Shown: positions 1 through 49,660, numbered from the stretch's first letter. The stretch is 64,000 nucleotides of DNA from an uncultured Nitrospirales bacterium (GCA_964610095.1 CAZSUT010000001.1:626-64625); one strand, 5' to 3'. Made by a program: numbers and translations. The notes: generated from the sequence alone by a model not told the origin.

Positions 1-798
1 CGGCAGACGCAGTATCGCGTAGGCGCTCGGTTGTTGTTCGCGCAAAAAGTACATTTGCCCAAGCCCAATGGAAACAAGAACCAAAACTCCCTTCCGCTTC
101 CCGCCAGTGGATCCAGAGTGATGGTGAACGGCCGCAGGGATCGGATGAAACCAGATTCCCCAACCAGCACGACGAACACGCCAGGCGAAATCCATGTCCT
201 CAAAACCAAAGAAATAGCGGTTATCGAATCCTCCCACTGCTTCCCAAACGCTTCGGCGTACCAAAAAACAAGACCCCTCGACAGCATCCACGGGAAACGG
301 CTCCCCGCGTTGGAGGTGCCGCGCGTAGGGATGGATGATCGGAGAGTGTGTGAACACACGATTAAGTCTCGTTTCGTAAAGCAGGACTGAGGCAATGGTA
401 GGAAACGACGTCACGGAGACGTAGGGCCTGCCGTCTGACAGCAGCAACCGCGGCCCGACTACACCAACTTCCGGATGCTTCTCGATAAAATCAAAGAGGC
501 GGGTAAGACCACCAGGCACCAGCGTAGCATCGGGATTCAGTATGAGAAGATACTCCCCAGATGCCAGCGCGACCGCCTGATTTGCAGCCGTGGCGAAACC
601 TACGTTCTCTGCATTCTCCACCCACCGCACCTTCGGGAAACAGGGCTTTAATTGCCGAATGGTCCCGTCGCCCGATGCATTGTCCACCACGATGACTTCC
701 ATGTCTCCCTGTAATCCATTTTCGTCCACACTCCGTAAGCAGGCTTCAAGCAAGTTGCGGACTCGATAGGAAACTATTGCGACGCTTATCTTCGGCAA
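1..798 (-). CDS. Glycosyltransferase family 2 (C-terminus lies beyond left window edge)
   Basis: Not in ORF track (no stop in window). My minus-strand translation from TTG at 798 reads MPKISVAIVSYRVRNLLEACLRSVDENGLQGDMEVIVVDNASGDGT...NVGFATAANQA...LILNPDA, which are GT2/GT-A motifs. The frame stays open to nt 1 and overlaps the upstream stop by 13 nt. Confidence 0.8.
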   Translation of the reverse strand, partial: MPKISVAIVSYRVRNLLEACLRSVDENGLQGDMEVIVVDNASGDGTIRQLKPCFPKVRWVENAENVGFATAANQAVALASGEYLLILNPDATLVPGGLTRLFDFIEKHPEVGVVGPRLLLSDGRPYVSVTSFPTIASVLLYETRLNRVFTHSPIIHPYARHLQRGEPFPVDAVEGSCFLVRRSVWEAVGGFDNRYFFGFEDMDFAWRVRRAGWGIWFHPIPAAVHHHSGSTGGKRKGVLVLVSIGLGQMYFLREQQPSAYAILRLP

Positions 799-1730
799 AG
801 ATCTTCTTTCGTAATATGTGCTAGCCGGAGTCCTAATACGGATTCAAGAACCTCCCGATAGGCCCACCGTCGTGGATCGTTTCGTTTCGTGAGCAGCAGC
901 TTGAGAAGAAATTCGACGAGGATGAGACATTTCAACAGAAAAAGTTCAGCCACGCGCCGATGTTTCGCAAAGTACCGAAGCTCGCCGAGGGTCCCCGAGA
1001 GAGTGAGCAGGCCTCCTCTCACCTTTCCTTCGGACTGCCCTCCGTGATGGATGATCACGCCCCTGGGCACGTACTCGATCCGCCAGCCAGCCCGGCGGGC
1101 CCGCTCGCAGAGGTCGGTCTCTTCCATATAGAAGAAGTACCCTTCATCGAAGGGACCTACCTCCTCCAGCACGCGCCGACGCGCCATGAGACAGCCGCCG
1201 GACAGCCAGTCCACCGCCACCGGTTCTCCGCTCCGATGGGCGAGCTCCCAGATCTGCCGGTAGGGATTGATCCTGGGGTTGGTGTAGAAATAGTGCCGCA
1301 GGCCCGTGTGGGTGAGGAACAGGAACCACAGGTCCGGGGACGGGCAGATCGTGGGATATGCCGTCCCCTCCTCAAGCCGCTCGGTGGGTCCCACAATGCC
1401 GACTCCCTGCTGCTCTTTCAGTCGAGTGAGGAGCGGCCCGAGGGAATCAGGTAGCAGGCGGGTATCGGAGTTGAGGAAAAGAATGACCTCGCCCTTCGCC
1501 AGCGGCAAAGCCTGGTTGTTGGCGGCAGCGAACCCTCGATTGTCGGAGTTGGCAATGAGGCGCACCTCCGGAAACTGCTCCGTGACCAGCGCCGGACTCC
1601 CATCCGTGGAACCGTTGTCCACGACGAAGACTTCGTAGGATTCGGACGGCGGGTGGCGACGTATGGACTGGAGGCACTGCTCCAGCAACCCCTTGGTGTT
1701 GAAGCTGACGATAAGGATCGAGAGCGTCAC
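786..1730 (-). CDS. Glycosyltransferase family 2
   Basis: 314-aa ORF with LSILIVSFNTKGLLEQCL...EVFVVDNGSTDGS...NRGFAAANNQA...LNSDT (GT2 signature). 4-nt overlap with the upstream gene. Confidence 0.9.
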   Translation of the reverse strand: MTLSILIVSFNTKGLLEQCLQSIRRHPPSESYEVFVVDNGSTDGSPALVTEQFPEVRLIANSDNRGFAAANNQALPLAKGEVILFLNSDTRLLPDSLGPLLTRLKEQQGVGIVGPTERLEEGTAYPTICPSPDLWFLFLTHTGLRHYFYTNPRINPYRQIWELAHRSGEPVAVDWLSGGCLMARRRVLEEVGPFDEGYFFYMEETDLCERARRAGWRIEYVPRGVIIHHGGQSEGKVRGGLLTLSGTLGELRYFAKHRRVAELFLLKCLILVEFLLKLLLTKRNDPRRWAYREVLESVLGLRLAHITKEDLCRR

Positions 1731-2836
1731 CGCGTCTCCAACACTTCCCGGTATACCCGCTCGAACCGCTCTACGATCCGGTCCCAGCGGTACTTCGCCC
1801 CGGCCCTCTTTGCTCCTTGGCGCATGGCCTGTTGTAACGCCGGGTTCCCGAGGATAGTGCGCATCGCCTCGGCCAAGGCTTTTGGGTCGGCGGGCGGCAC
1901 GACGAATCCGCTTCGGCCCTGCTCCACGGCCATCGCGCTGCCGCAGGCCGTCGTCGCAACGACCGGACAGCCTTCATTGAGCGCTTCCACCACCACGATC
2001 CCGAAGGGTTCCATCACGCTCGAGAGCACGAACAGATCGACGTGCCGCATCAGGGCCAGAACAGTTGCGTGCGACAGCCAGCCATGGAACATCACGAGCG
2101 AGGCGATGCCGATCCGGGAGGCGAGGGTTTCCAGTTCGGCACGCTGCGGCCCATCGCCGACCATGTGCAGCGTCAGCCCTGGCCAGTCTTTGGCGAGCGC
2201 GCCAATGGCCGGTAAGAGGTAGGTTTCGCCCTTGTCCGGTTCCAGGTGCCCGACAAACAGCAGGTTCGGTCCGGTCCTTCTCAGCATCAGTTTGGCGGCC
2301 TCTTCGACCTCCGGCAGAACCCGTTCCGGCTGATAGCCGTGCGGGAGGGATTCAACCGGACCGGTGGCGTAGGGACTGATCGCGGTCGCGAAGAGATCGC
2401 TGACGGCCAGGGTCTTGGTGGCGTGACGGATTGCCGGGCCTACCTCAATCCTCCGGCGAAGCCGTCCGGCTTCATGAAAATCCATCCCCTGGATATAGGT
2501 GATGGCAGGAATCGATAGCAGCCTGCCGACAATAACCGCGAAGAGCCCGCAAGAGGCCGCCTGCCCCTGCACCAGGTCGGGACGGATCTTCCTGGCCAGC
2601 AGAAGAATCTGCAGAAGTCGCTGCACCGTCCCGGCGAAAGGCAGAGGCCAGACGCGCAGACGATGGACCCGGACCTGCCCCACCGTTTCTTCTGGCGGGA
2701 TCCCATCGGAGCGGGCCACGATCACTGACACCTCCCACCCGCGCCGGGTGAGGGCCTGGGCCAAGGAGGCCGTGGCCATGGCGGTCCCGCGGAGCTGCTG
2801 CGGTGGGAACTCGTTGACGATGAGGAGCAGCCTCAT
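1727..2836 (-). CDS. Glycosyltransferase family 4 (GT-B, GT1/GT4-type)
   Basis: 369 aa. MRLLLIVNEFPP N-terminus; C-terminal EPFGIVVVEALNEGCPVV region is typical of GT4. Confidence 0.85.
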   Translation of the reverse strand: MRLLLIVNEFPPQQLRGTAMATASLAQALTRRGWEVSVIVARSDGIPPEETVGQVRVHRLRVWPLPFAGTVQRLLQILLLARKIRPDLVQGQAASCGLFAVIVGRLLSIPAITYIQGMDFHEAGRLRRRIEVGPAIRHATKTLAVSDLFATAISPYATGPVESLPHGYQPERVLPEVEEAAKLMLRRTGPNLLFVGHLEPDKGETYLLPAIGALAKDWPGLTLHMVGDGPQRAELETLASRIGIASLVMFHGWLSHATVLALMRHVDLFVLSSVMEPFGIVVVEALNEGCPVVATTACGSAMAVEQGRSGFVVPPADPKALAEAMRTILGNPALQQAMRQGAKRAGAKYRWDRIVERFERVYREVLETR

Positions 2837-3969
2837 TTCAGTAAGTCTTTCGCCGCCGCATAGACCTCATCCACCGTGATGGCCCAGGGAAAGGCGGCGT
2901 CCTTCTGATCCCGGATGTTGAACGGGACGGGATTCAGGAGCATCACGGCCTCATCCGGCTCGTAGCGGTGGTAGCGGATTTGACCCGGGCCGATCAAGCC
3001 GATCGTCGGCCGCTGCCGTGCGATCGCGACGTGCATAGGCCCTGAGTCATTTCCGATAAAAAGGTGCGCGACGTCAATTAAGGCCGCCATCTGGAAGAGA
3101 TCCGTAGTGCCTGTCGTATTCAGGTAGCTTCCTTGGGGAAGCCCCTCGACGACCTGCTCAGTGAAAACGTACTCGTCGCGTGTTCCTACCAACACAATCC
3201 CGAACCCGTCCGCCACGAGCCGCTTTGCCAATTCCATGAATCGGTCAACAGGCCAAAGTTGGGCCGAATGCGTCGCACCGACATGCATACAGACCACGCG
3301 GTGGCGAGTGGGCATCGCTCGCCTGATACGATTCCGTGCCGCTTCAATCTCCTGAGGCTCAAGCGGACATTCTGTGGCAAGATCCTTACCGCAGTCGCCC
3401 AGAAGGCCTACCACGTCCAAGAAAAACGGCCGGTAGTGCCGACCGTCCAGGAGCGACTCCGGGACGGATCGATCAAAGACACCATGGCCGGACACATAGT
3501 CCGGGTTGATGCCGACTCGAAACCTCGCTTTCGAGCGCACCGCCAGCCAGAGCTCTAAAAGGTACCATTGGGGAAGCCAGGTATGGTGGAAGCTGATGTA
3601 AATATCAACCGGCGTTATCCGCATGAAGCGAATCGGCTTCATCAAGGCCCGCCAGAACGGCACGCTCCCAATCCGCCTCAACTCCAAATCAAAAAGAGGA
3701 AATTCGCATCCTTCCCCCACATAGGGAAACCGGAAGAGGAACGCCGCGTTCTTGACTCTGTACGTCACGATGTCGATGGTGGCCATAGGATACAAGCGGT
3801 GGAGAGCCCGGAGCGCCGGTGTGATAAGGAGCAGATCTCCAACCCCGCTCATCTGGAACACCACGATCCGGCGGACTGACTCTGGAACAGGCAGTGGCAT
3901 CCGTCCTCGCGCGATCTGCGACAGCGCAGAGAGCAGCCGGATGAGCCTCCTGACGGGCCTATCTTTCAC
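2833..3969 (-). CDS. Glycosyltransferase family 9 (heptosyltransferase-like)
   Basis: 378 aa. VFQMSGVGDLLLITPALRALHRLYP and FIGNDSGPMHVA are characteristic GT9 motifs. Confidence 0.8.
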   Translation of the reverse strand: MKDRPVRRLIRLLSALSQIARGRMPLPVPESVRRIVVFQMSGVGDLLLITPALRALHRLYPMATIDIVTYRVKNAAFLFRFPYVGEGCEFPLFDLELRRIGSVPFWRALMKPIRFMRITPVDIYISFHHTWLPQWYLLELWLAVRSKARFRVGINPDYVSGHGVFDRSVPESLLDGRHYRPFFLDVVGLLGDCGKDLATECPLEPQEIEAARNRIRRAMPTRHRVVCMHVGATHSAQLWPVDRFMELAKRLVADGFGIVLVGTRDEYVFTEQVVEGLPQGSYLNTTGTTDLFQMAALIDVAHLFIGNDSGPMHVAIARQRPTIGLIGPGQIRYHRYEPDEAVMLLNPVPFNIRDQKDAAFPWAITVDEVYAAAKDLLK

Positions 3970-4804
3970 AGTCCCCTACTTTTCGAGCTACAAGAATGGT
4001 GCCACCGGCAATCCCATCATGTACAGCCTCCTCCTGGTAGAAAAGAGTGATAAGCCGCAAAAAGATACGCTTCCAGAACCGCTCGCCGCCGATCCGGCGC
4101 AAAACGCCAGACATAAAATAGAAGGTGCCGTCGTTCGTCCAGAAACCAGGAAAAGGGAATGGTTGCTCAAAAATTGATTCCAGGAATGTGATGAACCGAG
4201 CGGTGCGAGGACTGAGGAAGGGGTCAAACCCGATCGGCTCAAAGCCAGCCTGCCGAAATCGCTTCGTCCACTCTACCGGTCCGAACAGATTCAGGTGTGC
4301 CATTCTCTGATCGTGGGCGTCCACGATCCTGCGGCCTAGTTTAGGGAATCCTAGCGTGGAGAGGACACTATTCCAGAAATAGAGGGCCTTCCAGTTAGAA
4401 CTGGGCACCGTGGCGATAAGGGTCCCGCCAGGACGAAGTACCCGAGCCGCTTCCGTAAGGCACGCGTCAATAGCCCAAAGGTGTTCGACAACGCAGATGC
4501 CTAAGATGGATCCGAAAGTCCCTGCCCGGAAGGGAAGATGGCGGGCATCTCCTTGGACGACCTTTTTCATGAATAGCTTCGCCTTTGGCAGCGGGGAAGG
4601 ATCCACATCGATCCCGACGGATTCGACATCTCCCAAGAAAAGATGGTGGATCGCACCGTCCCCACACCCAAGGTCAAGGATAGGAGGTGAGCACAGAGCC
4701 TGATAGTGATAGACACCGCGCCACTCCAAAGCCCGGAAGAGGGCGAGTGATACCTTCCACGGATACAAGTCAACCAATGCATCAAGCCTTGGATCCTTAA
4801 TCAA
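3959..4804 (-). CDS. Class I SAM-dependent methyltransferase
   Basis: 281 aa. ILDLGCGDG motif I and LRPGGTL. TTG start overlaps the upstream stop (TTGA). Confidence 0.8.
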   Translation of the reverse strand: MIKDPRLDALVDLYPWKVSLALFRALEWRGVYHYQALCSPPILDLGCGDGAIHHLFLGDVESVGIDVDPSPLPKAKLFMKKVVQGDARHLPFRAGTFGSILGICVVEHLWAIDACLTEAARVLRPGGTLIATVPSSNWKALYFWNSVLSTLGFPKLGRRIVDAHDQRMAHLNLFGPVEWTKRFRQAGFEPIGFDPFLSPRTARFITFLESIFEQPFPFPGFWTNDGTFYFMSGVLRRIGGERFWKRIFLRLITLFYQEEAVHDGIAGGTILVARKVGDCER

Positions 4805-5718
4805 TGGGGATTCTTTTTCGCAAGAAGGCGGATCACGTCTGATTCACCCTTCACTCCTGCCTTGTAGAGTTCATTCGCATACCGGGCCGCTCTGACCAAC
4901 ACTCCGAAGACTGGGTTGGCCTTGTTCCGTTCATAGAATCGCCTGGCCCTGTCCATGCTCCCACACGCAGCGTTGAGGAGCCCTGTACCTTCCACTTCAC
5001 GGTGAGCCGAACAGACCTCGAATCCCCGCCCGACAAGAAGCCGCGTGAGTGTCCGTTCGCTGAAATAAAAGAGATGCTCCGGCACCTTTATGTGCGTCCA
5101 GTGATTCCCCTCGCGCTTGGCTGTTCCAGAGTCGATATCCGGAGTTTCAATCCATAGCAGGCCGCCTGCAACCAACCAGCCCTTGATCCGTTGCACCATC
5201 CTCACTGGATCTCGGAAGTGTTCGATCACGTGCTGCAGAGTCACCACATCAAACGACTCCAAGGGGAACACGACCTCTTCCAGTGGACCGGTCAGAATTT
5301 CCTGGCTGCCGTACCGTTCCCGGGCGTAGGCAGTCGCAAAACTCGACACGTCCGCTCCCGCGGTCTTCCACCCCCTGTCCCGAGCCGCCTTCAAGAGAAA
5401 ACCAGGGCCGCATCCTAGGTCGAGGAGCCGTCCTTTGCCTCCCCGCACTCGCTCAATCTCATCCAGAATCCCGTGGCAACTTTCGAGCCGTCGCACAATC
5501 CGCGCAGGATCGAGCACATTCTCCTGCCCTCTCTCCTTCACTGCACAATCACCCCGGTAATAGCCCTCCGCGTAAAGAAGATCGTCAGGACAGGCAGGCT
5601 GGGGATTGAGCAGGACAAGCGAACAGGTTGAGCACCGGTCCACCCCTTGTCCTGCAATCTCAAACAAGGTGCCGAGCTTCTGCGAACCGCACAGCGGACA
5701 GCATGAGAAACGTGTCAT
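4801..5718 (-). CDS. SAM-dependent methyltransferase with N-terminal zinc ribbon
   Basis: 305 aa. CPLCGS...CSTCS zinc ribbon, then LLDLGCGPGFLL motif I. Confidence 0.8.
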   Translation of the reverse strand: MTRFSCCPLCGSQKLGTLFEIAGQGVDRCSTCSLVLLNPQPACPDDLLYAEGYYRGDCAVKERGQENVLDPARIVRRLESCHGILDEIERVRGGKGRLLDLGCGPGFLLKAARDRGWKTAGADVSSFATAYARERYGSQEILTGPLEEVVFPLESFDVVTLQHVIEHFRDPVRMVQRIKGWLVAGGLLWIETPDIDSGTAKREGNHWTHIKVPEHLFYFSERTLTRLLVGRGFEVCSAHREVEGTGLLNAACGSMDRARRFYERNKANPVFGVLVRAARYANELYKAGVKGESDVIRLLAKKNPH

Positions 5719-7301
5719 CCGGATTTCCGTACGAGCACCCGCACCATTGGAAGATAATCGCTCAGCAGCTCCCGATCGTGATGATCAAGAACACCGGCCA
5801 CACGAATGGTAATGAGATACACAGTCACGTACAGAATAATACAGCTGACGAGCGCGAGCAACGCCGGTCCACGTTCAGCCTCCCCCACCCAGCCCGCCGC
5901 CCATCCGATGAAAAGCAGCGAAACGACGGCCGGAGGAAAGTTTAGAAGAAAAATACCACCCGCCTGGCGTAACTGGTCGCCCCACGACCGCTTAAAATCC
6001 CGGCAAAAGAGAACCAACAGATACCCATTGCTCAGGATGAGGGCCACCGTGGTTCCGATCAAGACACCCGTGTAACCAAATGGGAATATCAAAGCCAGGG
6101 ACAGCAGGAGGTTGAGTCCACCTTGGATCAAAGAAATCCGCATGAGAGGCCCCACCCACCCGATACCAGCACCGATGGTCGTCACCATTCCCATGCTCAC
6201 CACTGTCCAATACCCAGTCGAGAGCAACAGAATCGCCAGGTGGACATCAGACAACACGTGGCCAAGCCACACCTGAAGAATCAGATGAGCGGTAAGCCAG
6301 GTGCCGACCAGCGTAGGAACGCTCAAGAGAAGGAGACACTTCGTTCCCAGCTCAAATAGCATCCAGAGACGCCTTTGATCCTCTTTGCCGGCAAGCGCTG
6401 AAGCAGCCGGGAATATGGCTCCCAGCATGATCTGCGGAAGATCGTGCAGCAAGTAGGAGACCTTCGCCCCGAGATCGTAGAAAGTGACATATCGTAGCGG
6501 CACGAAGAGTCCAAGCAGAATCTTATCAGCCTGATAACTGACCAGCTGAGCGACTTGGGAGATCTGGAAACGAATTCCATACCCGAAGAGAGCCTTGATG
6601 GCCGCAAACCGAAGGTCCTGTCTCCTCCAGGCCAAAGCCGGGAAGGCGATCTTAGCTTGAACGGCGAGAAGAAGGAGTTGGAGCAGATACACGATGCATG
6701 CAATCGTCACCAACCCTAAGAGTCCCCACCCGAGGCGCAACACAAGGTACGATCCCAGAAGATTGGGAATGGACACGGCGATCAGAGTCAAATTAACCAG
6801 ATCCATCCGCTGAAACCCTTTCAGCAACCCATCAAAGAGGGAAACAAGGTTCATGAGGAAGAGGACGACGAGGCCGACCTGAAACGTCCGCGCGGCTTCG
6901 GAGCGGAGACCTTCTGGTATGTAAAAGAGGGAGGCGATCCATCCCACCACCGGCCAAAGCAACATGACGACAACGGCCCCTAGCGCGAGATAGAAGAAAA
7001 GCGCGCTGGCAAGAACTCGGTTGATCGACAACGTATCGCCTTTTGACTGGTATTCAGAAAAGTACTTTACAAGCGCGGAGCCCAATCCCATATCAAGCAA
7101 GAGGAAGTACTGGGTGAGGGACCAGAAGAGGGCCCAGACGGCGAAGCGATCCTGGCCAAGATAGGAAAGGATAAGCGGGGTCAGAAGCAGATTGGTAGAG
7201 ATAAGCCAAAGGCGTCCCACCGCATTAAAAGCGGTGTTCCGCAGAATTCGTCTCGAAATCGGAGCGTCCGGTTCGTTCAGCGTAAACACGTTACCTGGCA
7301 A
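5715..7301 (-). CDS. wzx: Oligosaccharide/polysaccharide flippase (MOP superfamily, Wzx-like)
   Basis: 528 aa with more than 10 predicted TM helices. N-terminus RRILRNTAFNAVGRLWLISTNLLLTPLILSYLGQDRFAVWALF is typical of polysaccharide biosynthesis flippases. Confidence 0.75.
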   Translation of the reverse strand: MPGNVFTLNEPDAPISRRILRNTAFNAVGRLWLISTNLLLTPLILSYLGQDRFAVWALFWSLTQYFLLLDMGLGSALVKYFSEYQSKGDTLSINRVLASALFFYLALGAVVVMLLWPVVGWIASLFYIPEGLRSEAARTFQVGLVVLFLMNLVSLFDGLLKGFQRMDLVNLTLIAVSIPNLLGSYLVLRLGWGLLGLVTIACIVYLLQLLLLAVQAKIAFPALAWRRQDLRFAAIKALFGYGIRFQISQVAQLVSYQADKILLGLFVPLRYVTFYDLGAKVSYLLHDLPQIMLGAIFPAASALAGKEDQRRLWMLFELGTKCLLLLSVPTLVGTWLTAHLILQVWLGHVLSDVHLAILLLSTGYWTVVSMGMVTTIGAGIGWVGPLMRISLIQGGLNLLLSLALIFPFGYTGVLIGTTVALILSNGYLLVLFCRDFKRSWGDQLRQAGGIFLLNFPPAVVSLLFIGWAAGWVGEAERGPALLALVSCIILYVTVYLITIRVAGVLDHHDRELLSDYLPMVRVLVRKSG

Positions 7302-7338
7302 CCAGCCGATCCGAAACGGTATGCCTCTCCTGGCTCAT

Positions 7339-8109
7339 TCAAAAGAGTGGCCTCCTAGCATAAACAAGGAGCTGGAGGCACATCCTGTTTAAAACCGGCG
7401 TACGAGCCCAGCGATGGTCAAGCTGAATGAGTAAGCGAGTAATCGCAACATTCCAAGGGACATAGCGCAATAGGGGAAGGTGGTCCGGGAACCCTGCCAG
7501 GACATAGGCGCTGTAGCCGAACCGTTCCATCCGTATCTCCCGGAAGCCGGTCGTCTCGATGAGGTTCCGGAGCTGATCAGATAGGAAACCTTCATCCTCC
7601 TCATCGAACTTGTCGGAGAAGCGGTACATCAGCCTCCGCACCGTCCGTACAAACCACCAATCGTTGCTGGGCTCAGAGAGGATAAACTCTCCACCGGGAC
7701 GTAAAACCCGGTGTATTTCAGCAAGCGCAGCCCGACGGTCCGGAACATGATGCAGCACCCCCCGGCAGATCACGAGGTCAAAGGAGGCGCTCCCAAGCGG
7801 CAGGGCTGAGCCATCGCCCACAACCAGCGGCGTGTCTAGCTTCCGCGCTGCCTGCATCATCTCCTGCGAAACATCGGAGCCAACCACGAAGCGATACTTC
7901 TGCGTGAGGTCAGCAAGCAGGACGCCGGTTCCACATCCAAGCTCCAAAACTCGATCCGCCTGCATATGGTTCATTGCGAAAAGCGCTCGGTTCCACTCCT
8001 TCTGGAACACTTGGGAAAAAGCATCGCGGTAACGGATCGCGTAATTGCCCACAAGGCGCTTGTGTAATTCTTTTTCACGCTCGAAGCGGCTCTCTCTCCG
8101 TGAGATCAT
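7339..8109 (-). CDS. Class I SAM-dependent methyltransferase
   Basis: 256 aa. VLELGCGTGVLL motif I and LRPGGEF. ATGA overlap with the upstream GT2 stop. Confidence 0.8.
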   Translation of the reverse strand: MISRRESRFEREKELHKRLVGNYAIRYRDAFSQVFQKEWNRALFAMNHMQADRVLELGCGTGVLLADLTQKYRFVVGSDVSQEMMQAARKLDTPLVVGDGSALPLGSASFDLVICRGVLHHVPDRRAALAEIHRVLRPGGEFILSEPSNDWWFVRTVRRLMYRFSDKFDEEDEGFLSDQLRNLIETTGFREIRMERFGYSAYVLAGFPDHLPLLRYVPWNVAITRLLIQLDHRWARTPVLNRMCLQLLVYARRPLF

Positions 8110-8981: not shown

Positions 8982-8984
8982 GTT

Positions 8985-9830: not shown

Positions 9831-9858
9831 CAAATGCCAGGTCTTCTTGAGAATCTGT

Positions 9859-11139
9859 TTAACGATGCAGAGATTCCTGTCCAAGACGCACACCCAGATG
9901 ATTGAGCGCTGCAGACCCGAACACGCACCACATCGGTTCAAGCACATACCCGTAACGTCGTATTGCGTGGACGAGCCCATAGACGACCAGCACGTAGGCA
10001 AACACCCCGATAAAAGGAAAAACCGTCGCATCAACCCGATACCTTCTGATCAAAAACAGGATCGAGACGCTTACAAACAGCGCATGCACCCCAAATGCTG
10101 ACCAAGCAAGGATCGGATGTACGCCCTGCAAGACGGAGCTTCCTGGTGGCGGCGAGACAAGGAGTATCAAGTCTCGGTTGAGAACGAGCATAAGATAGGC
10201 AATCGGGCGATCCCAAATTCGATCAGTGAGATCCTTCCTGTCTTTCGCCCTCCGCTCATCTAGTAGCAGGTGCGCATTGGTCTGCTCCCGTTGCCGGAGA
10301 AACCCCCTCGCCCTCTCCCGCTCTTCTTCAAGCTTGCGCATGCTAGAAAGAGTCCACCAGAAATCTCCGGAGAAAACCGGGTAATGGCCAAACATGATGG
10401 TGAAGTGCTGGTAGTCCTCTGCTTCAGCTTTGCTCTCTTCCGGAAGCAGGTTGTTGCGAATATGCCAAGGAAGCCACAGCGTCATCGCTACGAGGAGAAC
10501 ACCCACAAGCCGCTGCCAATGTGGACGGAGTCGCCGATCCAGGAAACTGAGCGACAAAAGGGCCAGCGGCAGGAAGATGTAGACAGGGCTCGTCAAAAGA
10601 AGCAGCCCGTAAAAGCACCCCGCCAGGATAAAGTAAACATTTCGGTCTTCTCTGGATCCTCGGACAAAGCAATAGATCGCACCAAGCAAAATTGGGATGA
10701 GTAGGTTCTCTCGATGTAGGCTCGTGACAATCTCATAAGATGGGTACAACGTGAATATACCCGCAGCCAAGAGCCCGACCGTTTCCGAGAATAACATCCG
10801 CCCTAGAGAGAAGATGAGAAAAACCAGGGAAGCGTTGAGTAGCGCCTGGGCGTACCAGACCACTCGGTAATCCTTCCCTAAGATCGCATACACCAGGGCA
10901 ATAAAGGCGGGATACACCGGCGGGAGGTACGTGGTCGGATGGCCGGGGTCTACGGCATAACCCTTTGCCTCAATGAGGTTCACAGCGATCCGATGATTAT
11001 CCAGTTCGTCCCGTTGGGGTGGTTCGGCAAGCCAGTGGATTGCGGCCACACGTACGACAACGGCCACCAGGAACAGAAGGATAAGCCATCGGAGTAATGC
11101 CCGTCTCGGAGAGGAAGTACCAGGCGAGGCCCCGCTCAT
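9859..11139 (-). CDS. GT-C fold membrane glycosyltransferase (ArnT/PMT-like, GT39/GT83-type)
   Basis: 426 aa, polytopic. First loop PPQRDELDNHRIAVNL carries a DE motif, followed by multiple TM helices, as in the dolichyl/undecaprenyl-phosphate-sugar dependent transferase family. Confidence 0.7.
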   Translation of the reverse strand: MSGASPGTSSPRRALLRWLILLFLVAVVVRVAAIHWLAEPPQRDELDNHRIAVNLIEAKGYAVDPGHPTTYLPPVYPAFIALVYAILGKDYRVVWYAQALLNASLVFLIFSLGRMLFSETVGLLAAGIFTLYPSYEIVTSLHRENLLIPILLGAIYCFVRGSREDRNVYFILAGCFYGLLLLTSPVYIFLPLALLSLSFLDRRLRPHWQRLVGVLLVAMTLWLPWHIRNNLLPEESKAEAEDYQHFTIMFGHYPVFSGDFWWTLSSMRKLEEERERARGFLRQREQTNAHLLLDERRAKDRKDLTDRIWDRPIAYLMLVLNRDLILLVSPPPGSSVLQGVHPILAWSAFGVHALFVSVSILFLIRRYRVDATVFPFIGVFAYVLVVYGLVHAIRRYGYVLEPMWCVFGSAALNHLGVRLGQESLHR

Positions 11140-11172
11140 CGGAGGCTCTCTACTCCAGATCGTCCAAGTCCG

Positions 11173-12675
11173 CTAGCCTCCTTGCCTTCTGGTACGATCC
11201 ATGGCGCTCTGTCGCCATTGGGGTCTGGTTCTGGCCGTCGGATACATAATGGGACTTTCCACCTCGTGCAAGCCTTCCGCAGCCTGAGCCTCTTGCTGAG
11301 CTCTCAACTTGTTACTGGTGGCGTGGTCTAGGTCTATCTGAGCGAGCGCATGACTTCTGGCTATCAATGCCGCAATAAGCCAAAACGGCTCCATGATCCT
11401 GACAATGATAAAAGTATTGGCTCCGACGGCATGCACGAGCAAGCCCACAAACCCAAGCAAAAACCCAAGCGCTACCCCCCGATTAAAAGGATCCACGGAT
11501 TCCTTGTACGTGGTCCTGCCAAGACGAAAGAGCGACCAAAGAAGGTAGGCAAAGCACACCGTTCCCAGGAGCCCGGTCTCTACCAGCACCCTTGGGTACA
11601 TAGCGTCCATGAAGTAGGGTCCTCCGGTTACCCCGGCCCCCCAAAGCGGAGCCCGGTAAAAGTATTTTAGCGACTTCTGCCATGATATGAGCCGCTCCGA
11701 GGTGGACGTATCCACCCTGACACCACCAAGCTTGATCTGACCCTCTTCTGGCGCCTGTGTGAGGGTAAACATAATCCGATCCTTTACGGCATCGGGGGCC
11801 CACCACGGAGAGAACAGCATACCCATCAACACGAATGCCACCACCACTGGTTTCCGGTAACTCAGCAGTCCCACCACCGCAAGAGCAACCACTAGAGCCG
11901 CCAAGAACGAAGCGCGCGAAAGGGTCGCCATTAGTGCAAGGCTTCCGGTTCCCAGAAGGATCAGGAACGGAAGGCGCGTGGGCACTGCTCCTGTAGTCAA
12001 CAAAAGTCCTGTCACAATCGCCAGCATGAACACAAGGTACCCACCCAGCGTGTTGGGCTCACCCTCACTCCCCTCGAATGGAGCCGACGCCCGTGCTCCG
12101 CTGGGAATCTGCGCGATAGCGAAGAGCGAGACCAGAAAACAGGTGACCAGGCTCGCGATCACCAGGGACTTGGCTTGCTTCTGACTGCTCACGGCGCTGA
12201 CGACCATGAAGTAAATAAAAACGTATTCGTAATACTTCATCATGTAGAAAAACCCGGTCATGGGTTTCACGCGTCCAGCCAGCACGCCGATCAGAGTCGC
12301 CAACACAGAAGCCGCAATATAGAGCATAATTGGCCCGTTCAATGGAGTCCTCGTGAACGGGGAGCTTTTAAAGAGCGCCATCTTCGCTAACCAGGCAAAC
12401 CCTATGACAACCAGAATAAAATCGTCGAAACGAAGGCTGATTCCTCGTCCTGCCGTTGCCCCAGCTAACGTTCCACCGACCAGAAATTCAGGGCCCAGGA
12501 GCATGGAGAAGACCAGCAGATAGAGGCTGATCGTGGTGGACACAAACGCCACCACCAAGACGAGGGTACCCAGAAAGATAGTCAAACGGAACGAGGTGTC
12601 ACTGGAAAAAATGAACAGGGACAGCGCAGCGGCTAGGGCTAACGGAATCACAACTATGAGCCCTTTAGGCTGCAT
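11173..12675 (-). CDS. O-antigen ligase / Wzy-like polymerase family membrane protein
   Basis: About 500 aa with more than 10 TM helices. LALMATLSRASFLAALVVAL is Wzy_C-like. I prefer ATG at 12675, preceded by GAGGAG 9 nt upstream, over the ORF-track TTG at 12726. Confidence 0.65.
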   Translation of the reverse strand: MQPKGLIVVIPLALAAALSLFIFSSDTSFRLTIFLGTLVLVVAFVSTTISLYLLVFSMLLGPEFLVGGTLAGATAGRGISLRFDDFILVVIGFAWLAKMALFKSSPFTRTPLNGPIMLYIAASVLATLIGVLAGRVKPMTGFFYMMKYYEYVFIYFMVVSAVSSQKQAKSLVIASLVTCFLVSLFAIAQIPSGARASAPFEGSEGEPNTLGGYLVFMLAIVTGLLLTTGAVPTRLPFLILLGTGSLALMATLSRASFLAALVVALAVVGLLSYRKPVVVAFVLMGMLFSPWWAPDAVKDRIMFTLTQAPEEGQIKLGGVRVDTSTSERLISWQKSLKYFYRAPLWGAGVTGGPYFMDAMYPRVLVETGLLGTVCFAYLLWSLFRLGRTTYKESVDPFNRGVALGFLLGFVGLLVHAVGANTFIIVRIMEPFWLIAALIARSHALAQIDLDHATSNKLRAQQEAQAAEGLHEVESPIMYPTARTRPQWRQSAMDRTRRQGG

Positions 12676-12753
12676 CGTACGCCACTCCTCAGCTAGGCCA
12701 CGGGATGGAAAACGGACTGATGCCAAATTGAACGGGCCCTGAAGTTGCCAGGA

Positions 12754-14907
12754 TCAGGACGATGAATAGCGATAGTACTGGTATTGGTGGTAATCAGGAG
12801 AAAATTCGGCGCTCACGTTGCTGAGCACCACCCCCACGATATGGGCCTGGGCATTCTCAAGGAGAGTCTTCGCTCGCAGCAATGGCGTCCGTCCAATTTT
12901 ACCAACTTGGTAGACCAAGACGACACCGTCGACTTTGGGACCGACCAGTACGGCATCAGCGACAGGCAGGATGGGTGGACAGTCAATCAAGACGAGATCA
13001 TAGTTTTCTTCACAGGCAGCGATCAGATCCACGAAGCGTTGAGAGTTGAAGAACTCGGACGGGTTGGGCGGCAGATGTCCGCTGGTGATGATACTCAGGT
13101 TGTCCACGCCGGGAGCGCTCAGGACCTGATCGAATCCCAGCTTGCCCAGCATCAGATCCGGAGCAGTCTGTACCACGTCCTGCCACTGCGCATTCCCGAC
13201 CAGAACCTCACTTAGGCCAGGCTCCCGCTTGAGCCCGAGCCGGCTGTGCACGGCCGGCTTTCTGAGGTCCGCGTCCACCACCAAGATCCGCCGTCCATCC
13301 TGCGCGATCGTGATAGCCAAGTTGATAACCGTCGTGGTCTTTCCTTCGCCGAGCCCGGCGCTGGCGAACGACAGGCTTTTGACCGTCCGGTCTAAGCAGG
13401 CGAATTGAAGGTTGACCTTCAATGACCGGTACCCCTCCGCGACCACACCTTTAAGATCGAACAACGGCGAGAGCCGCGACAGCAATTCCATGGATTCAGA
13501 ATCGAGCGTTTCAGGAAAGACCTTTTTAATCTCCTGCTCAACTTCCTTGTGGTCTACCCGCGGGATGACTCCGAGGACTGGGACTTTCAGGAACTCTTCA
13601 ACACCCTCAATCGTGCCGATAGAGGTATCAAAGGATTCTCGGACAAAGGCCAGGACGAATCCCAGCAACACGCCAATCAGGGAGCTCAGCAAGAGATTGA
13701 GGGTGGCTTTGGGCGCGTTCTTGGGTGAGCCCGGGGTGACGGCCGGTTCGATAATCGAGACTTCCTCGATGCGCTCAGCGCCCCGGATCAAAAACTCCTG
13801 GTGTTTCTGCTTCAAATTGGCATACAGGTCTCCATTGATCTTCACCTCGCGCTCCAGGCTGGCCTGCTCCAGGGCGGCCTTCGGCAAGGTGATGTACCGT
13901 TCCTTGAATCGGCCAATGGACTCTTTAATGGCGTTTTCCCGATCGGTCATCGTCCGCAGCTTGGACTCAAGCTCCTTGATCATTTCCTGCTTGACGCTCA
14001 GGATTTTGGCATCAAGCTCAACGACCAGGGGATGCTTGGGCATGTAGTTGATCAACAGGGCGGCGCGATCCGTATTCAGATCGACCAGCTTCTGGTTCAG
14101 TTTGGCGATCAGGGCCTGCACATCGTCGGAAAAGACACGCACGGGGCTGGCATCAGGGAGTGCCTCATTTGCTTTCAAGAGCCGGAGCTGGTTCGACGCT
14201 TCGCGTTTGACCTGTCCTAGCTTCTCGAGCTCGGCATCCAGGTGACTATAATTCTCCAACGCTTGGCGCGCTTCTTCGTTTAAGAAGACCTTTCCTTCAT
14301 GTTCCCGAAAGACAAGTAAGGCCTGCTCCGATTTTCTCAGCGCCTCTTCCACCGTCTTGAGCTGGTCCTCCACGAACCGCTTGGCGTCGTCCACTTGCCG
14401 GTTCCGGCTTGTAATGTTTTCTTCACGATAGCCCTCGGCGACCGCGTTGGCCAACCGTGCCGCAAACTCGGGCTCACCCGATGTGACGCTAATATTGAGG
14501 ATATTGGCGCTCTCCTCCTTGCTCACTGATACCAGGCTCTTTAACTCGTAGATCTTGGCAAGGGAGTCCGGAGAGGTACGCGCCTCATTGTTGTCGATCT
14601 CTTTCGCGACTACTCCTAGCTTCTTCGCCGCACGTAACATGACAGAAACACTCCGAATGACTTCCGCCTGCGTGGTCATGGCGTTGCCCTCCGAGGGAGC
14701 GGAGAGCACTTCCGTCAACAGACCCGACATCGAGGTGGAGCGATCATACTTCACTCTGGCAGAAGCTTCGTAGGTCGGTGTGGGGCCAAAGACCTCGGTG
14801 GTGAAAAAGGTGAAGCCCGCGACCAGGAAAACTGTGAGGGCGATAATCCACTTCCGCTTGCGGAGGATCAGCCAATAGTCCCGGAGATTCAGTTCGTACT
14901 GGGCCAT
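12754..14907 (-). CDS. wzc: Polysaccharide co-polymerase fused to BY-kinase (Wzc/GumC-like tyrosine autokinase)
   Basis: 717 aa. N-terminal Wzz-type TM plus coiled coil; Walker A SAGLGEGKTTTVINLA..VVDADLRKP; Tyr-rich tail SPDYHQYQYYRYSSS. Confidence 0.9.
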   Translation of the reverse strand: MAQYELNLRDYWLILRKRKWIIALTVFLVAGFTFFTTEVFGPTPTYEASARVKYDRSTSMSGLLTEVLSAPSEGNAMTTQAEVIRSVSVMLRAAKKLGVVAKEIDNNEARTSPDSLAKIYELKSLVSVSKEESANILNISVTSGEPEFAARLANAVAEGYREENITSRNRQVDDAKRFVEDQLKTVEEALRKSEQALLVFREHEGKVFLNEEARQALENYSHLDAELEKLGQVKREASNQLRLLKANEALPDASPVRVFSDDVQALIAKLNQKLVDLNTDRAALLINYMPKHPLVVELDAKILSVKQEMIKELESKLRTMTDRENAIKESIGRFKERYITLPKAALEQASLEREVKINGDLYANLKQKHQEFLIRGAERIEEVSIIEPAVTPGSPKNAPKATLNLLLSSLIGVLLGFVLAFVRESFDTSIGTIEGVEEFLKVPVLGVIPRVDHKEVEQEIKKVFPETLDSESMELLSRLSPLFDLKGVVAEGYRSLKVNLQFACLDRTVKSLSFASAGLGEGKTTTVINLAITIAQDGRRILVVDADLRKPAVHSRLGLKREPGLSEVLVGNAQWQDVVQTAPDLMLGKLGFDQVLSAPGVDNLSIITSGHLPPNPSEFFNSQRFVDLIAACEENYDLVLIDCPPILPVADAVLVGPKVDGVVLVYQVGKIGRTPLLRAKTLLENAQAHIVGVVLSNVSAEFSPDYHQYQYYRYSSS

Positions 14908-14920
14908 CGGATCACGTGCC

Positions 14921-15808
14921 CTATCGCGGCGACACAGTGGTGATGCTTGGGATTTGGACAGGTTGGATATTGTTCCGTTGCAGAAAATCCGTCAGTTCCT
15001 TCGGGCTCAACGTCTGCGTGCCCAGAAGCAGGAGGAGTGTCGAATTAATTTTGGCCAGGAAGGCATTCCAGTCAGCGATGCGCTGGCGCGGCACGAACAC
15101 AATATCGTTGTCCTTCAACACGATATCCTGGCTCCGGTCGCCATACTGAAAGAACCGCTGGAGGTCCACGGGAATGACCTCTGGTTTCCGGGCATCTCCA
15201 CGGATGACCCGAATGTCGTCCAACACCGCATAGTCATTGAACCCGATCTGCGCGAGGAGTTGGCCCACCGTCGTCTTTCTGTCCAACTCCGCCATCTTCG
15301 CCGCGCCCGCCGCTAAGAATGTGCCGGTCCCCGGTTGCCCGAATCCCCCTCCCAATAAAAAGACCCTTTGCTTGCGAAGCAGAAGCTTCTTCTGCTTTAT
15401 CGAGAGCTCTACGCGGGGATTGCGGATGATCGTAGCCGCTTGCTCGGTGATCCGAGCTTCGGCTTCGGGGACCGTCAGGTTCTTCACATCGATGTCCAGC
15501 GAGCCCACATAGACCCGGCCATTATCCCGAACCGTCACGAGCGAGCGCTCCTCCCCCGAGCCTCGCCGGACCACCACTTCCAAGCTGTCCCCCGGTTCTA
15601 TTTTGGACAGTCCCCCGTCAGAGACCTCTTCAACGTACAGATCGTCCGGCTTGACCGGACGGGCAAAGGGGGAATCGCCGGACGCGTTGTACGGAACGGG
15701 CGAGCAGGCGAACGACATACCCAGCATTACGAAAAGCGCGCAGTGCAGGCCGACGGCTCTGGAGACAGAAGCGAGTATTCTGACGCACCCTGCCAACGCC
15801 ATTCTCAC
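14921..15808 (-). CDS. wza: Polysaccharide export outer-membrane lipoprotein (Wza-like, Poly_export/SLBB)
   Basis: 295 aa. Lipobox-like LGMSFAC; IEPGDSLEVVV Poly_export motif. The start overlaps the HD-GYP stop. Confidence 0.8.
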   Translation of the reverse strand: MRMALAGCVRILASVSRAVGLHCALFVMLGMSFACSPVPYNASGDSPFARPVKPDDLYVEEVSDGGLSKIEPGDSLEVVVRRGSGEERSLVTVRDNGRVYVGSLDIDVKNLTVPEAEARITEQAATIIRNPRVELSIKQKKLLLRKQRVFLLGGGFGQPGTGTFLAAGAAKMAELDRKTTVGQLLAQIGFNDYAVLDDIRVIRGDARKPEVIPVDLQRFFQYGDRSQDIVLKDNDIVFVPRQRIADWNAFLAKINSTLLLLLGTQTLSPKELTDFLQRNNIQPVQIPSITTVSPR

Positions 15809-16833
15809 TGAACGTCCTGGACTACCTCAGTGACGTGGACCAACGACGACTTGCTGAGATCAAGCGTGCGTGTCTCTTTCGGCGAGAGACCATGCGCCTC
15901 CTTGTGCACCTTCACGACCGGCCTGAGCGGATACTGCGGGTTCAACTCGACGACTTCCGCGGTCTCCCCCGTGTTCAACCGGACGTGCGTTCCCAACGGA
16001 AACACGGAAAACTGCTGGATTAGGCACTTCAACGTCCTCGTCGAGAACGACGTCTTTTCCTTCGTCACTAACTCCCTGACCGCTTCATGTGGGAGGAAAC
16101 GCTTCCGGTACGGACGCGAGTGAAGGAGCGCCTCGAAGGTGTCGGCGAGTCCGATGACCTGCGCGAACTCATGAATCTCCTCCCCCTTGAGCCCACGCGG
16201 ATACCCCTGCCCGCCCAACCGCTCGTGCTCCTGAAGGACAAGCTCCGCGATCCAGTCGGCGTCCGGGCACAGCCTTCGGAGCGCCTGGGCGCCCGACTCG
16301 GGGTGTCGCTTGATGAGGGTCCGCTCCTCGTGGCTCAGCGGGCCCGGCTTGTTCAAGATCTCCTCGGGGATCAGGCACATCCCGACATCATGAAGGATCG
16401 CCGCGACTCCCAAGCGCATGAGATCCTGCCTCGAATACTGCAGCCCCATTCCGATCTTGATCGCGATGATGGCCGTGTTGATCAAGTTCGTGATGATTAG
16501 CCCGCCTCGCTCGGCAGTGATGGCCTTCACCAGCAGCCGGTCGCCTTGAGCGAGTGAATTGACGAACCCGTCCACTACTTGGGTGACGCCACCCAATGAA
16601 AACGTGTCGCCCGAGCGGACAGCACCGAGGATGGAGGGCAATTCCATCTCTGCCTGGGCATGCCATAGATCCGCATCCAGAACCAACTGGGCCTGCTGCT
16701 CCACGGAAACCTGGGCAGCGGTCGTATCGACGCTCTTGAATGAGGCTTTGTTCGGTTCCCCTTTCGGGCGAGGGCCAGGTCCTCCCTCCTGGGGTGAGCC
16801 TTCATTCCGCACGAGTTCATTGAGACGCGCCAT
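15805..16833 (-). CDS. HD-GYP domain protein (putative c-di-GMP phosphodiesterase) with unassigned N-terminal region
   Basis: 342 aa. AAILHDVGM and HERLGGQGYPRGL motifs. I recognise no domain in the N-terminal ~130 aa. Confidence 0.8.
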   Translation of the reverse strand: MARLNELVRNEGSPQEGGPGPRPKGEPNKASFKSVDTTAAQVSVEQQAQLVLDADLWHAQAEMELPSILGAVRSGDTFSLGGVTQVVDGFVNSLAQGDRLLVKAITAERGGLIITNLINTAIIAIKIGMGLQYSRQDLMRLGVAAILHDVGMCLIPEEILNKPGPLSHEERTLIKRHPESGAQALRRLCPDADWIAELVLQEHERLGGQGYPRGLKGEEIHEFAQVIGLADTFEALLHSRPYRKRFLPHEAVRELVTKEKTSFSTRTLKCLIQQFSVFPLGTHVRLNTGETAEVVELNPQYPLRPVVKVHKEAHGLSPKETRTLDLSKSSLVHVTEVVQDVQ

Positions 16834-16839
16834 GATTGA

Positions 16840-17637
16840 CTACTGCGCTTCCTTGAACGCCTTTTTCACCACATCAGGCCCGATCTGTTTGCACCGCTCC
16901 ATGAATCCGATTAACAACGCCAGATCCGCAATCGTATTGACTCTCCGCGGAACCCCGCCGCTGGCCTCATAGATCGCCGGTATGGCCTCCGGCATAAAGA
17001 CCATCTTGGCGGCACCCGCTGCCTGCATCCGGAAATCGACATAGTCGCCTACTTCTTCGGCAGAGAACGGTGTCAGGTGATAGCGTATCACAATCCGTTG
17101 AGATAGTTGCACGAAAGCATCGATCTTGGTACTCAATTCAGGCTGCCCCAGCAGGATAAAGGTGAGTAGAAAGCGATCATTGAGCTGAAAATTCAAAAGC
17201 AGTCGCAATTCCTCGAAAATCCCAACATCATGAATGGCCTGGGCCTCGTCCACGACAAGAACGGTGTCCCTGCCCTTATTCATATTCTGCAGCAGGTGAT
17301 CGTTCAGGGCATGGACCAAGTCCAGCTTGGTTCCATTCTGATTGACACCGAGCTGGTAGAGAATTTCCTTAATGAAGTCAGTTACTTCAAAGCTGGGATT
17401 GGCTATCAGCGCCAAATCATATCGTTCGTTGGAGAGATGTTGGATCAGGGTACGACTCAACAGGGTTTTCCCGCAGCCAATCTCCCCTGTCAACATTATG
17501 GCCCCTTTCCTCGCCTCTACCCCGTAAAGAAGGCGATGGAGCCCTTCCTCATGCCGTGTGGAGGGGAAATAGAAACGGGGGTCGGGAACGTTTTCGAAGG
17601 GAGCCTTTTTTAGCCCCCAGTAGTCTTCGTAATGCAA
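16840..17637 (-). CDS. ExeA-like AAA+ ATPase (EPS-locus/PEP-CTERM-type secretion ATPase family)
   Basis: Walker A LTGEIGCGKTLL and VLVVDEAQ Walker B. The ORF-track GTG start (17694) abuts a -10 box, so I prefer TTG at 17637, giving MHYEDYWGLKKAPF, an ExeA-like N-terminus. The start remains uncertain. Confidence 0.7.
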   Translation of the reverse strand: MHYEDYWGLKKAPFENVPDPRFYFPSTRHEEGLHRLLYGVEARKGAIMLTGEIGCGKTLLSRTLIQHLSNERYDLALIANPSFEVTDFIKEILYQLGVNQNGTKLDLVHALNDHLLQNMNKGRDTVLVVDEAQAIHDVGIFEELRLLLNFQLNDRFLLTFILLGQPELSTKIDAFVQLSQRIVIRYHLTPFSAEEVGDYVDFRMQAAGAAKMVFMPEAIPAIYEASGGVPRRVNTIADLALLIGFMERCKQIGPDVVKKAFKEAQ

Positions 17638-17694
17638 TGTTTTTTCTCGGGTAACCCCTTTATGTCTAAGGTAAACCCTTACACTGCCGGCCAC

Positions 17695-17723
17695 ACTATA
17701 TCATTGAAAACTGAGAGTGTCAA
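17695..17723 (-). promoter_or_regulatory. Near-consensus sigma70 promoter for the polysaccharide operon
   Basis: Minus strand reads TTGACA (17723-17718) - 17 nt - TATAGT (17700-17695). The -35 box overlaps the comEC stop codon (17720-17722). Confidence 0.55.
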
Positions 17724-36669: not shown

Positions 36670-36755
36670 TGGTGCCCGGGGGGAGGGTCGAACTCCCATG
36701 GTGTCGCCACCGGCGGATTTTGAGTCCGCTGCGTCTGCCATTCCGCCACCCGGGC
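36670..36755 (-). tRNA. tRNA-Leu (anticodon CAA), CCA encoded
   Basis: The reverse complement folds as a cloverleaf: acceptor GCCCGGG/CCCGGGC, anticodon stem GCGGA/TCCGC with loop CTCAAAA, a long variable arm, and T-arm GGGAG-TTCGACC-CTCCC, ending ACCA. Confidence 0.9.
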
Positions 36756-48150: not shown

Positions 48151-48455
48151 GTCTTGAGTTTCTTTCCTAGTCTCTTCTCCACGCTTGCGACCTTGGCGTG
48201 CAGGCGCCCCTGGGCCCCCTTGCGATAGTCCACCTTGATCGAACACGAGATGCGGTTGCAGTCCTTCCGCATCCGCTCAAAGCACTGCTTCACAACGCCG
48301 AACACGTCGTCCCAGTTGCCTTCCATGACCGTCCCCATCGGGTTGAGACGATAATCCACCCCGCTCTTGTCCACGATTTCCAGAGACCGGGCCACGTACT
48401 TGCCGACGCTCTCGCCTTTACCGAGGGGCGACATGCTGAACTCCAAGAGCAACAT
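48147..48455 (-). CDS. MTH1187/YkoF-like (UPF0045, DUF77) small protein
   Basis: 102 aa. MLLLEFSMSPLGKGESVGKYVA...GTVMEGNWDDVF. Confidence 0.75.
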   Translation of the reverse strand: MLLLEFSMSPLGKGESVGKYVARSLEIVDKSGVDYRLNPMGTVMEGNWDDVFGVVKQCFERMRKDCNRISCSIKVDYRKGAQGRLHAKVASVEKRLGKKLKT

Positions 48456-48458
48456 CGT

Positions 48459-49100: not shown

Positions 49101-49159
49101 CTGACACCATCAGTGAACGCGGGCGCATCTTACCGCACGGCAGGACGCAGGTAAATACG

Positions 49160-49659: not shown

Positions 49660-49660
49660 C

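Follow-up and report, generated by a model that had tools for sequence, protein, structure and literature searches.

The first 17.7 kb of a 64,000-nucleotide stretch of DNA from an uncultured Nitrospirales bacterium (GCA_964610095.1, CAZSUT010000001.1:626-64625) contain a putative surface-polysaccharide locus. The whole stretch, at its full length, is referred to here as the window. Positions 1-17694 are filled by 16 tightly packed open reading frames (ORFs), all on the minus strand, in agreement with a preliminary description in which every gene from a promoter at 17.7 kb to the left edge had this orientation. The coordinates of the locus genes given below refer to that strand. Families were assigned by Pfam and NCBIfam profile searches against curated cutoffs, and structural relatives were found by sequence search of the PDB. 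Pfam agreed with the family set described earlier: Wza, a fused Wzc, a Wzx flippase, a Wzy-like protein, three GT2 glycosyltransferases, one each of GT4, GT9, and GT-C, and four S-adenosylmethionine (SAM) methyltransferases. This family content supports the earlier assignment as a surface-glycan locus. The two genes that had been left unnamed encode an ExeA-like AAA ATPase and a variant HD-GYP protein. The source can be assigned to Nitrospira, as a metagenome-assembled genome; the close matches of the window proteins all came from Nitrospirae or Nitrospira metagenome-assembled genomes. The GC fraction is 0.52-0.61 over the first 18 kb, compared with 0.60-0.66 in most of the remaining window.

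The first gene of the locus encodes a 265-residue ExeA-like ATPase of the AAA_22 family (16840-17637; PF13401, 84.8 bits). Homologues were identified in four related Nitrospira loci, designated L169 (92% identity), L085 (80%), and L084 and L166 (63-64%), giving a range of 63-92%. By analogy, this ATPase may help to assemble or regulate the export machinery. The second gene encodes a 342-residue protein of the HD_5/HD-GYP family (15805-16833; PF13487, 104.9 bits). The motif of this protein is EHERLGGQGYP (EHERxGGxGYP), whereas the canonical form is HHExxDGxGYP. The first histidine, a metal ligand, is replaced by glutamate, and the aspartate is replaced by glycine or asparagine; the HD and GYP elements are retained. 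The variant is kept in all four Nitrospira homologues aligned, with homologues present in L084, L085, and L166. The PDB search matched V-cGAP3 (5z7c, 5.7e-21) and PmGH (4mcw, 5.7e-19). Since the variant motif is conserved, this protein is a candidate for a sensor or for a cyclic-dinucleotide phosphodiesterase whose metal site is altered. Together with the ATPase it makes up a conserved pair at the operon head, with a predicted accessory or regulatory role that may involve cyclic dinucleotides.

The next three genes belong to export and polymerisation families. The Wza-type export protein (Poly_export, 293-295 residues; 14921-15808; PF02563, 32.3 bits, cutoff 28) contains an N-terminal signal peptide and a cysteine. 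Its subfamily is narrow: the search gave 140 matches, and the 120 listed all share at least 64% identity. No PDB sequence match was found for this protein, and its AlphaFold2 model, built from a 22-sequence alignment, reached a mean confidence (pLDDT) of 50.8, too poor for fold classification. The fused Wzc (12754-14907; PF02706, PF13807, PF13614) combines a periplasmic Wzz/GNVR region with a tyrosine autokinase, and scored 159 bits against TIGR01007 (cutoff 108). It contains the P-loop AGLGEGKT, and five tyrosines lie in its last 13 residues. A PCP-2a Wzc with tyrosine autokinase and a Wza-type protein are both present above the Pfam and TIGR01007 cutoffs. The fifth gene encodes a Wzy_C-domain membrane protein with about 11 transmembrane (TM) helices (11173-12726; PF04932, 42.8 bits, cutoff 31.7). 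The protein is predicted to be a repeat-unit polymerase or ligase, two functions that the PF04932 domain does not tell apart.

The GT-C fold glycosyltransferase that follows (PMT_2/ArnT-like, 426 residues; 9859-11139; PF13231, 60.8 bits) is 49% identical to its counterpart in a further relative, L001, and is missing from L169, L085, and L084; the variable region starts at this gene. A class-I SAM methyltransferase (8985-9893, with alternative starts at 9893, 9884, or 9830; PF13649, 37.3 bits) separates it from a GT2 enzyme of the polyprenyl-phosphate-sugar synthase type (8106-8981; PF00535, 113.9 bits). This GT2 enzyme matched the NCBIfam models for AglJ, ArnC, and dolichyl-phosphate-hexose transferase, and the PDB structures of ArnC (9hwj, 9e-22), GtrB (5ekp, 3e-18), and DPMS (5mlz, 6e-18). 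Two TM helices are found in its C-terminal part, at residues 232 and 257. A similar GT2, methyltransferase, and GT-C trio was also found in L166. The GT-C enzyme would take a polyprenyl-phosphate sugar on the periplasmic face, supplied by the GT2 enzyme; the ArnC/GtrB/DPMS matches, the C-terminal helices, and the nearby GT-C gene fit such a periplasmic side-sugar addition. The ArnC/ArnT and GtrB/GtrC modules likewise have a GT2 enzyme with two C-terminal TM helices near a PMT_2 GT-C enzyme. However, no GtrA-type small flippase is present here, the GT-C enzyme is short, and a polysaccharide would take the place of lipid A or O-antigen as the acceptor.

The remaining genes of the window part of the locus include three more class-I SAM methyltransferases (7339-8109, PF08241, 92.7 bits; 4801-5718, PF13489, 87.5 bits; 3959-4804, PF08241, 61.4 bits). 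A Wzx-type flippase of the MOP superfamily with about 10 TM helices lies among them (5715-7301; PF13440, 53.8 bits, and PF01943, 44 bits, both above their cutoffs). It also matched the WZX_like model NF041503 weakly. The flippase is type-specific, with 61% identity in L001 and no match in L169, L085, or L084. A GT9 enzyme of the heptosyltransferase family (2833-3969; PF01075, 81.8 bits) is followed by a GT4 enzyme (1727-2836; PF00534, 118.4 bits) and two GT2 enzymes (786-1730, PF00535, 90.3 bits; 1-798, PF00535, 79.7 bits). The heptosyltransferase models all scored the GT9 protein below their cutoffs. The GT2 protein at 786-1730 is 100% identical to database protein P0001. The last GT2 gene, with a TTG start at 798, is cut by the window edge after 266 of about 315-352 residues. 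Methyltransferase-like ORFs occur in every locus variant (1-6 per locus, mean 3.3), and the polysaccharide is probably methylated, as judged from these gene families. None of the window proteins, nor those of another relative, L002, reached an NCBIfam equivalog model of a characterised exopolysaccharide (EPS) or O-antigen enzyme.

It had been proposed earlier that the locus runs past position 1, and this is borne out by synteny with L001 and L086. The continuation was read from the relatives L001, L086, and L002. L001 (GCA_004296885.1, a 577-kb contig, 78% GT2 identity) is syntenic gene for gene from the Wzy gene to the edge-cut GT2, and continues on the same strand with two methyltransferases, a GT2, an AsnB-like amidotransferase, a methyltransferase, two GT4 enzymes, and a 530-residue protein. 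L086 (SXGU01268307.1) shares with the window, at identities of 62-80%, two methyltransferases, GT9, GT4, and two GT2 genes. Without a change of contig or strand, these are followed by two methyltransferases, two GT2 enzymes, AsnB, two GT4 enzymes, PHP, WbqC, PIG-L, DegT, WecA, and MtnA. Full-length orthologues of the edge-cut GT2 are present in both loci. In L002, which also contains an Asn_synthase-family amidotransferase, the GT4 pair is followed by a PHP/CehA-like hydrolase, WbqC (PF08889), PIG-L (PF02585), DegT (PF01041), a WecA-type protein, mtnA, and a TPR gene. The WecA/MraY-type protein (Glycos_transf_4; PF00953, 115.9 bits; about 10 TM helices) ends the locus, and homologues at 90% identity were found in L086 and L087. 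Projected from L086, the window locus would span about 31 kb with about 28 genes, and the end of its WecA-type gene would lie about 13 kb left of position 1.

These data bear on the absences stated in the preliminary description, which had found no initiating phosphoglycosyl transferase and no nucleotide-sugar synthesis gene. The window indeed lacks a WbaP/WecA-type gene as well as any dedicated nucleotide-sugar gene. However, GlmM (20341-21699, minus strand), a housekeeping enzyme of UDP-GlcNAc precursor synthesis, is present inside the window. Since WecA-type, DegT, PIG-L, WbqC, and AsnB-like genes lie downstream in the relatives, their absence from the window can be explained as a truncation artefact, and the missing initiating transferase should not be regarded as a real trait of the locus. 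Two further features of the relatives were observed. The methionine-salvage gene mtnA, for methylthioribose-1-phosphate isomerase, comes next after the WecA-type gene and in the same orientation in nearly all of the Nitrospira loci that were read; the distance is about 30 nt in L002 (mtnA at 16464-17495) and in L086 (19756-20787). A second, divergent AsnB-like gene (36-39% identical) is found in the variable regions of L087 (near 2717) and L094 (near 3945).

The distribution of these genes was analysed across Nitrospira with the second GT4 gene of the 3' module as anchor. The anchor matched 173 stretches in a species-representative genome collection, and the best 80 were kept; almost all of these 80 are labelled Nitrospira, Nitrospiraceae, or Nitrospirota. 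The 3' module (AsnB-GT4-GT4-PHP-WbqC-PIG-L-DegT-WecA, with or without MtnA) is conserved in about 45 loci, each 20 kb or longer, from species-level Nitrospira genomes, with identities of 55-90%, and also occurs in metagenome contigs. The 5' module (ATPase-HD-GYP-Wza-Wzc-Wzy_C) is kept in L169, L085, L084, and L166. Contig Ga0194120_10000537 carries the ATPase at 19,245 and, in the same orientation, the AsnB to MtnA genes at about 46,550-57,200, which shows that both modules belong to a single locus of about 37 kb and form its two ends. In pairwise comparisons of 14 loci, tblastx matches of at least 50% identity covered 90% of the 3' block, compared with a median of 3% for the 9 kb upstream of it. 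These 14 loci fall into seven variable-region groups.

The conserved border at the other end can be placed by comparison with L169, whose 5' module is the most similar one (ATPase 92%, Wzc 86%) and which shares the ComEC-GlmM-FolP-FtsH flank with the window. The identity falls from 86% for Wzc to 67% for Wzy, and L169 lacks orthologues of the Wzx, GT-C, and GT2 genes of the window. The border between conserved and variable genes therefore lies at about 11.1 kb in the window. The Wzy_C protein, the last member of the 5' module, is 51-67% identical in loci with differing variable genes. As far as comparative sequence analysis indicates, the locus is a cassette, in which conserved 5' and 3' modules enclose a low-GC centre (about 1-11.1 kb in the window) of Wzx, glycosyltransferase, and methyltransferase genes that is swapped between genomes; this layout is classic for Wzx/Wzy-dependent capsule and O-antigen loci. 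Strain-specific glycans would therefore be expected. The enzyme mix, which had been considered atypical, corresponds to a standard Wzx/Wzy/Wza/Wzc pathway in a cassette layout.

Several features bear on whether the locus is a single transcription unit. Gene overlaps of 4-13 nt were found at eight junctions (798/786, 13 nt; 1730/1727; 2836/2833; 3969/3959, 11 nt; 4804/4801; 5718/5715; 8109/8106; 15808/15805), as had been reported, although two junctions depend on start-codon choice and the count may range from seven to nine. The widest intergenic gap in the locus is 37 nt. A sigma-70-type promoter (TTGACA-17-TATAGT, with an extended -10 TG; 17695-17723, minus strand) matches 11 of 12 consensus positions, which no other site in the first 19 kb does. 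The ComEC stop codon (17722-17720) and the -35 hexamer of this promoter overlap. Promoter-like sites overall number 7, against 6.7 expected, which is not above chance; their count by itself is therefore no proof of a promoter. An equivalent pair (TTGAC(A/G)-17-TACAGT/CACAAT) lies 5' of the ATPase gene in three other loci of differing sequence (L085, L084, and L166), two of which (L084 and L166) have a wholly different left flank. Since the promoter pair is kept across loci with differing flanks, the 5' border of the locus can be fixed here, and the ATPase start was moved from GTG 17694 to TTG 17637. The resulting 265-residue product is 100% identical to database protein P0121. Terminator-like sites (22, against 19 +/- 4 expected) give no signal for or against internal termination. 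The locus is probably one transcription unit starting from 17.7 kb. The minus-strand run goes on beyond 17.7 kb with ComEC, GlmM, FolP, FtsH, Hpt, TilS, and RibF. In the lineage of L084 and L166, the locus adjoins citrate synthase, and a small ORF of 96-183 residues without a Pfam match precedes the ATPase promoter region (L084, 9182-9733; L166, 9570-9860); it has no counterpart in the window.

The PEP-CTERM-locus models, which had been suggested for comparison, matched several proteins, all below the curated cutoffs (bits/cutoff: TIGR03015, 235/324.5; TIGR03007, 154/279; TIGR03018, 110/231; TIGR03027, 55/180; TIGR03088, 104/409; TIGR03108, 540/817). A model of this kind was the best NCBIfam match for the ATPase (TIGR03015), the Wza-type protein (TIGR03027), the amidotransferase (TIGR03108), and one GT4 enzyme (TIGR03088). 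Wzc was also matched by TIGR03007 and TIGR03018, which ranked under the generic Wzc and EPS-transport models. These top-ranked matches raise the possibility that the locus is the EPS arm of an XrtA-type PEP-CTERM/exosortase system, with the genes for the exosortase and the PEP-CTERM proteins at other genomic sites, as is the case for floc-forming bacteria of activated sludge. The XrtA/PEP-CTERM EPS loci (Haft et al. 2006, PMC1569441) likewise contain an AAA_22 ATPase, an export protein, a chain-length determinant, a tyrosine kinase, an AsnB-like amidotransferase, and GT4 enzymes. In the loci studied here, by contrast, the chain-length determinant and the kinase are fused, the initiating enzyme is of the WecA type rather than the Bac_transf type of XrtA loci, and an HD-GYP gene is present. 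No exosortase (PF09721) or PEP-CTERM gene was found in the Pfam lists of L001, L084, L085, L166, and L169 or among the window ORFs examined, and no paper linking Nitrospira to exosortase was found. The "Nitrospira multiformis" of Haft et al. is a misprint for Nitrosospira. Membership in the PEP-CTERM group was rejected on the sub-cutoff scores, the lack of an exosortase in the loci read, and the different family of the primer enzyme. The XrtA explanation is therefore very doubtful, but a distant relationship to the PEP-CTERM EPS loci is plausible.

The gene families and their order, the synteny with relatives, the conservation pattern, and the promoter motif suggest that the 16 genes described here form the promoter-proximal part of a Nitrospira locus (about 28 genes, 31 kb), which probably makes a secreted or capsular heteropolysaccharide by a Wzx/Wzy-dependent route. 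The enzymatic steps and the nature of the product are predicted from family membership as follows. The WecA-type enzyme, encoded about 13 kb beyond position 1, would load an N-acetylhexosamine-type sugar-1-phosphate onto undecaprenyl phosphate. The repeat unit would be extended in the cytoplasm by the GT4, GT2, and GT9 enzymes, and the SAM methyltransferases might O-methylate its sugars, which are their putative substrates. The AsnB-like, DegT, PIG-L, and WbqC enzymes may yield amino sugars that are amidated or unusual; in other O-antigen clusters, AsnB-like enzymes are known to amidate uronic acids. Wzx would flip the unit across the inner membrane, and the Wzy_C protein would polymerise it. 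The ArnC/GtrB-like GT2 and the GT-C enzyme could add a side sugar in the periplasm from a polyprenyl-phosphate donor. The Wzc tyrosine autokinase and the Wza-type protein would then export the polymer.

The ambiguous Wzy_C protein also allows other products. One is a lipopolysaccharide (LPS) O-antigen, or a capsule made of O-antigen like that of E. coli group 4. Wzy_C would then be a WaaL-type ligase that attaches the WecA-initiated glycan to lipid A-core, and Wza/Wzc would carry the same repeat out of the cell in a high-molecular-weight form. The WecA-type initiator, the GT9 enzyme (an LPS-core family), the hypervariable centre, and the Wzy_C (O-antigen ligase) domain conserved across differing variable regions are compatible with this explanation. 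In the O-antigen clusters of E. coli O121/Shigella dysenteriae 7 and P. aeruginosa O6, WbqC occurs together with a sugar aminotransferase such as DegT and an AsnB-like amidotransferase, as in the 3' module; such genes are typical of O-antigen clusters. However, those clusters are not known to be gene-for-gene syntenic with the locus, or to contain Wza/Wzc, the ATPase, the HD-GYP protein, and multiple methyltransferases. The full pair of Wza and bacterial tyrosine kinase (BY-kinase) Wzc marks capsule or EPS export over LPS ligation. Neither a second Wzy-like polymerase candidate in the window-type locus nor a Wzz-only chain-length regulator was seen. An O-antigen product is therefore considered unlikely. 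The second alternative is a general protein O-glycosylation system with the Wzy_C protein as a PglL-like oligosaccharyltransferase. PglL and PilO belong to the Wzy_C family, and WecA, Wzx, and cytoplasmic glycosyltransferases would be compatible with such a system. However, Wza and BY-kinase Wzc are foreign to known O-glycosylation systems, and about 28 genes are far beyond the need of a short glycan. This explanation is hardly credible.

The proposed polysaccharide locus shares many features with the group 1/4 capsule and EPS loci (E. coli, Klebsiella cps, colanic acid). These include Wzx, a Wzy-family protein, a Wza-type protein, and a fused Wzc, the conserved flanks around a low-GC glycosyltransferase centre, and overlapping genes on one strand. 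Differences were also found. In the Nitrospira locus, Wzy_C belongs to the conserved module, the initiating transferase is of the WecA type and lies at the far 3' end, no Wzi is present, the operon begins with the ATPase and the HD-GYP variant, and there are 4-6 methyltransferases. Some observations weigh against assignment to a Wzx/Wzy-dependent capsule or EPS. The left-hand continuation is projected from relatives that share 76-78% identity. With only about 290 residues the Wza-type protein is short, and no outer-membrane beta-barrel partner was identified. No cognate Wzb, that is, no low-molecular-weight protein tyrosine phosphatase domain, was found in the window or related loci; the sole candidate, a weak one, is the 542-residue PHP/CehA-like protein of the 3' module (PF02811, 26.5 bits). 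A Wzy_C protein in the conserved module would be unusual for a polymerase and would fit a ligase equally well. Finally, a terminator scan found none between ComEC and the locus, and read-through from upstream is therefore possible. Consistent with the preliminary description, which could map the gene combination to no characterised EPS or O-antigen pathway, no characterised cluster with gene-for-gene synteny was found. The literature on Nitrospira exopolysaccharide, PEP-CTERM, exosortase, Wzc, and O-antigen also gave no description of the locus.

Several features elsewhere in the window were observed. An OPT-family oligopeptide transporter at 59303-61255 (minus strand) is split into two adjacent ORFs, of which 60479-61255 covers profile positions 1-259 and 59303-60436 covers positions 296-622. 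The split could be due to a frameshift, a pseudogene, or an assembly error. Rfam and ARAGORN scans of the window detected a single RNA gene, tRNA-Leu(CAA) at 36670-36755 (minus strand). Two paralogous ORFs, each of about 150 residues, lie in tandem upstream of rplM-rpsI (37218-37673 and 37787-38266, plus strand) and share the motifs LPIWVG, PRP.THDL, and SRPSDAIALAL; they are putative DUF151/bifunctional-nuclease-domain proteins. Long minus-strand ORFs at 37.1-38.8 kb were rejected as reverse-frame artefacts over ordinary plus-strand genes. A 277-residue ORF at 62371-63204 (plus strand) gave a weak Pfam match to Vasohibin (27.2 bits, cutoff 24), a eukaryotic tubulin carboxypeptidase family with a transglutaminase-like fold, which is unusual in a bacterium.

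Mechanistically, the locus introduces no new principle and corresponds to an uncharacterised but conventional Wzx/Wzy/Wza/Wzc system. It is conceivable, but quite unlikely, that the ATPase and HD-GYP pair acts as a Nitrospira-specific cyclic-dinucleotide checkpoint on Wzc/Wza export, and that the product is a heavily O-methylated, hydrophobic, hypervariable capsule, perhaps underlying microcolony or floc formation and strain diversity in water-treatment systems. A hypervariable capsule, if true, might contribute to strain-level diversity, for example in the escape from phages or grazers. Wastewater, drinking-water filters, soils, and groundwater all harbour Nitrospira as key nitrifiers, which grow in microcolonies embedded in a matrix. 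No paper on the genetic basis of the Nitrospira matrix or capsule was found. The locus offers a concrete target for the study of aggregation, strain microdiversity, and phage or grazer interactions in these bacteria.

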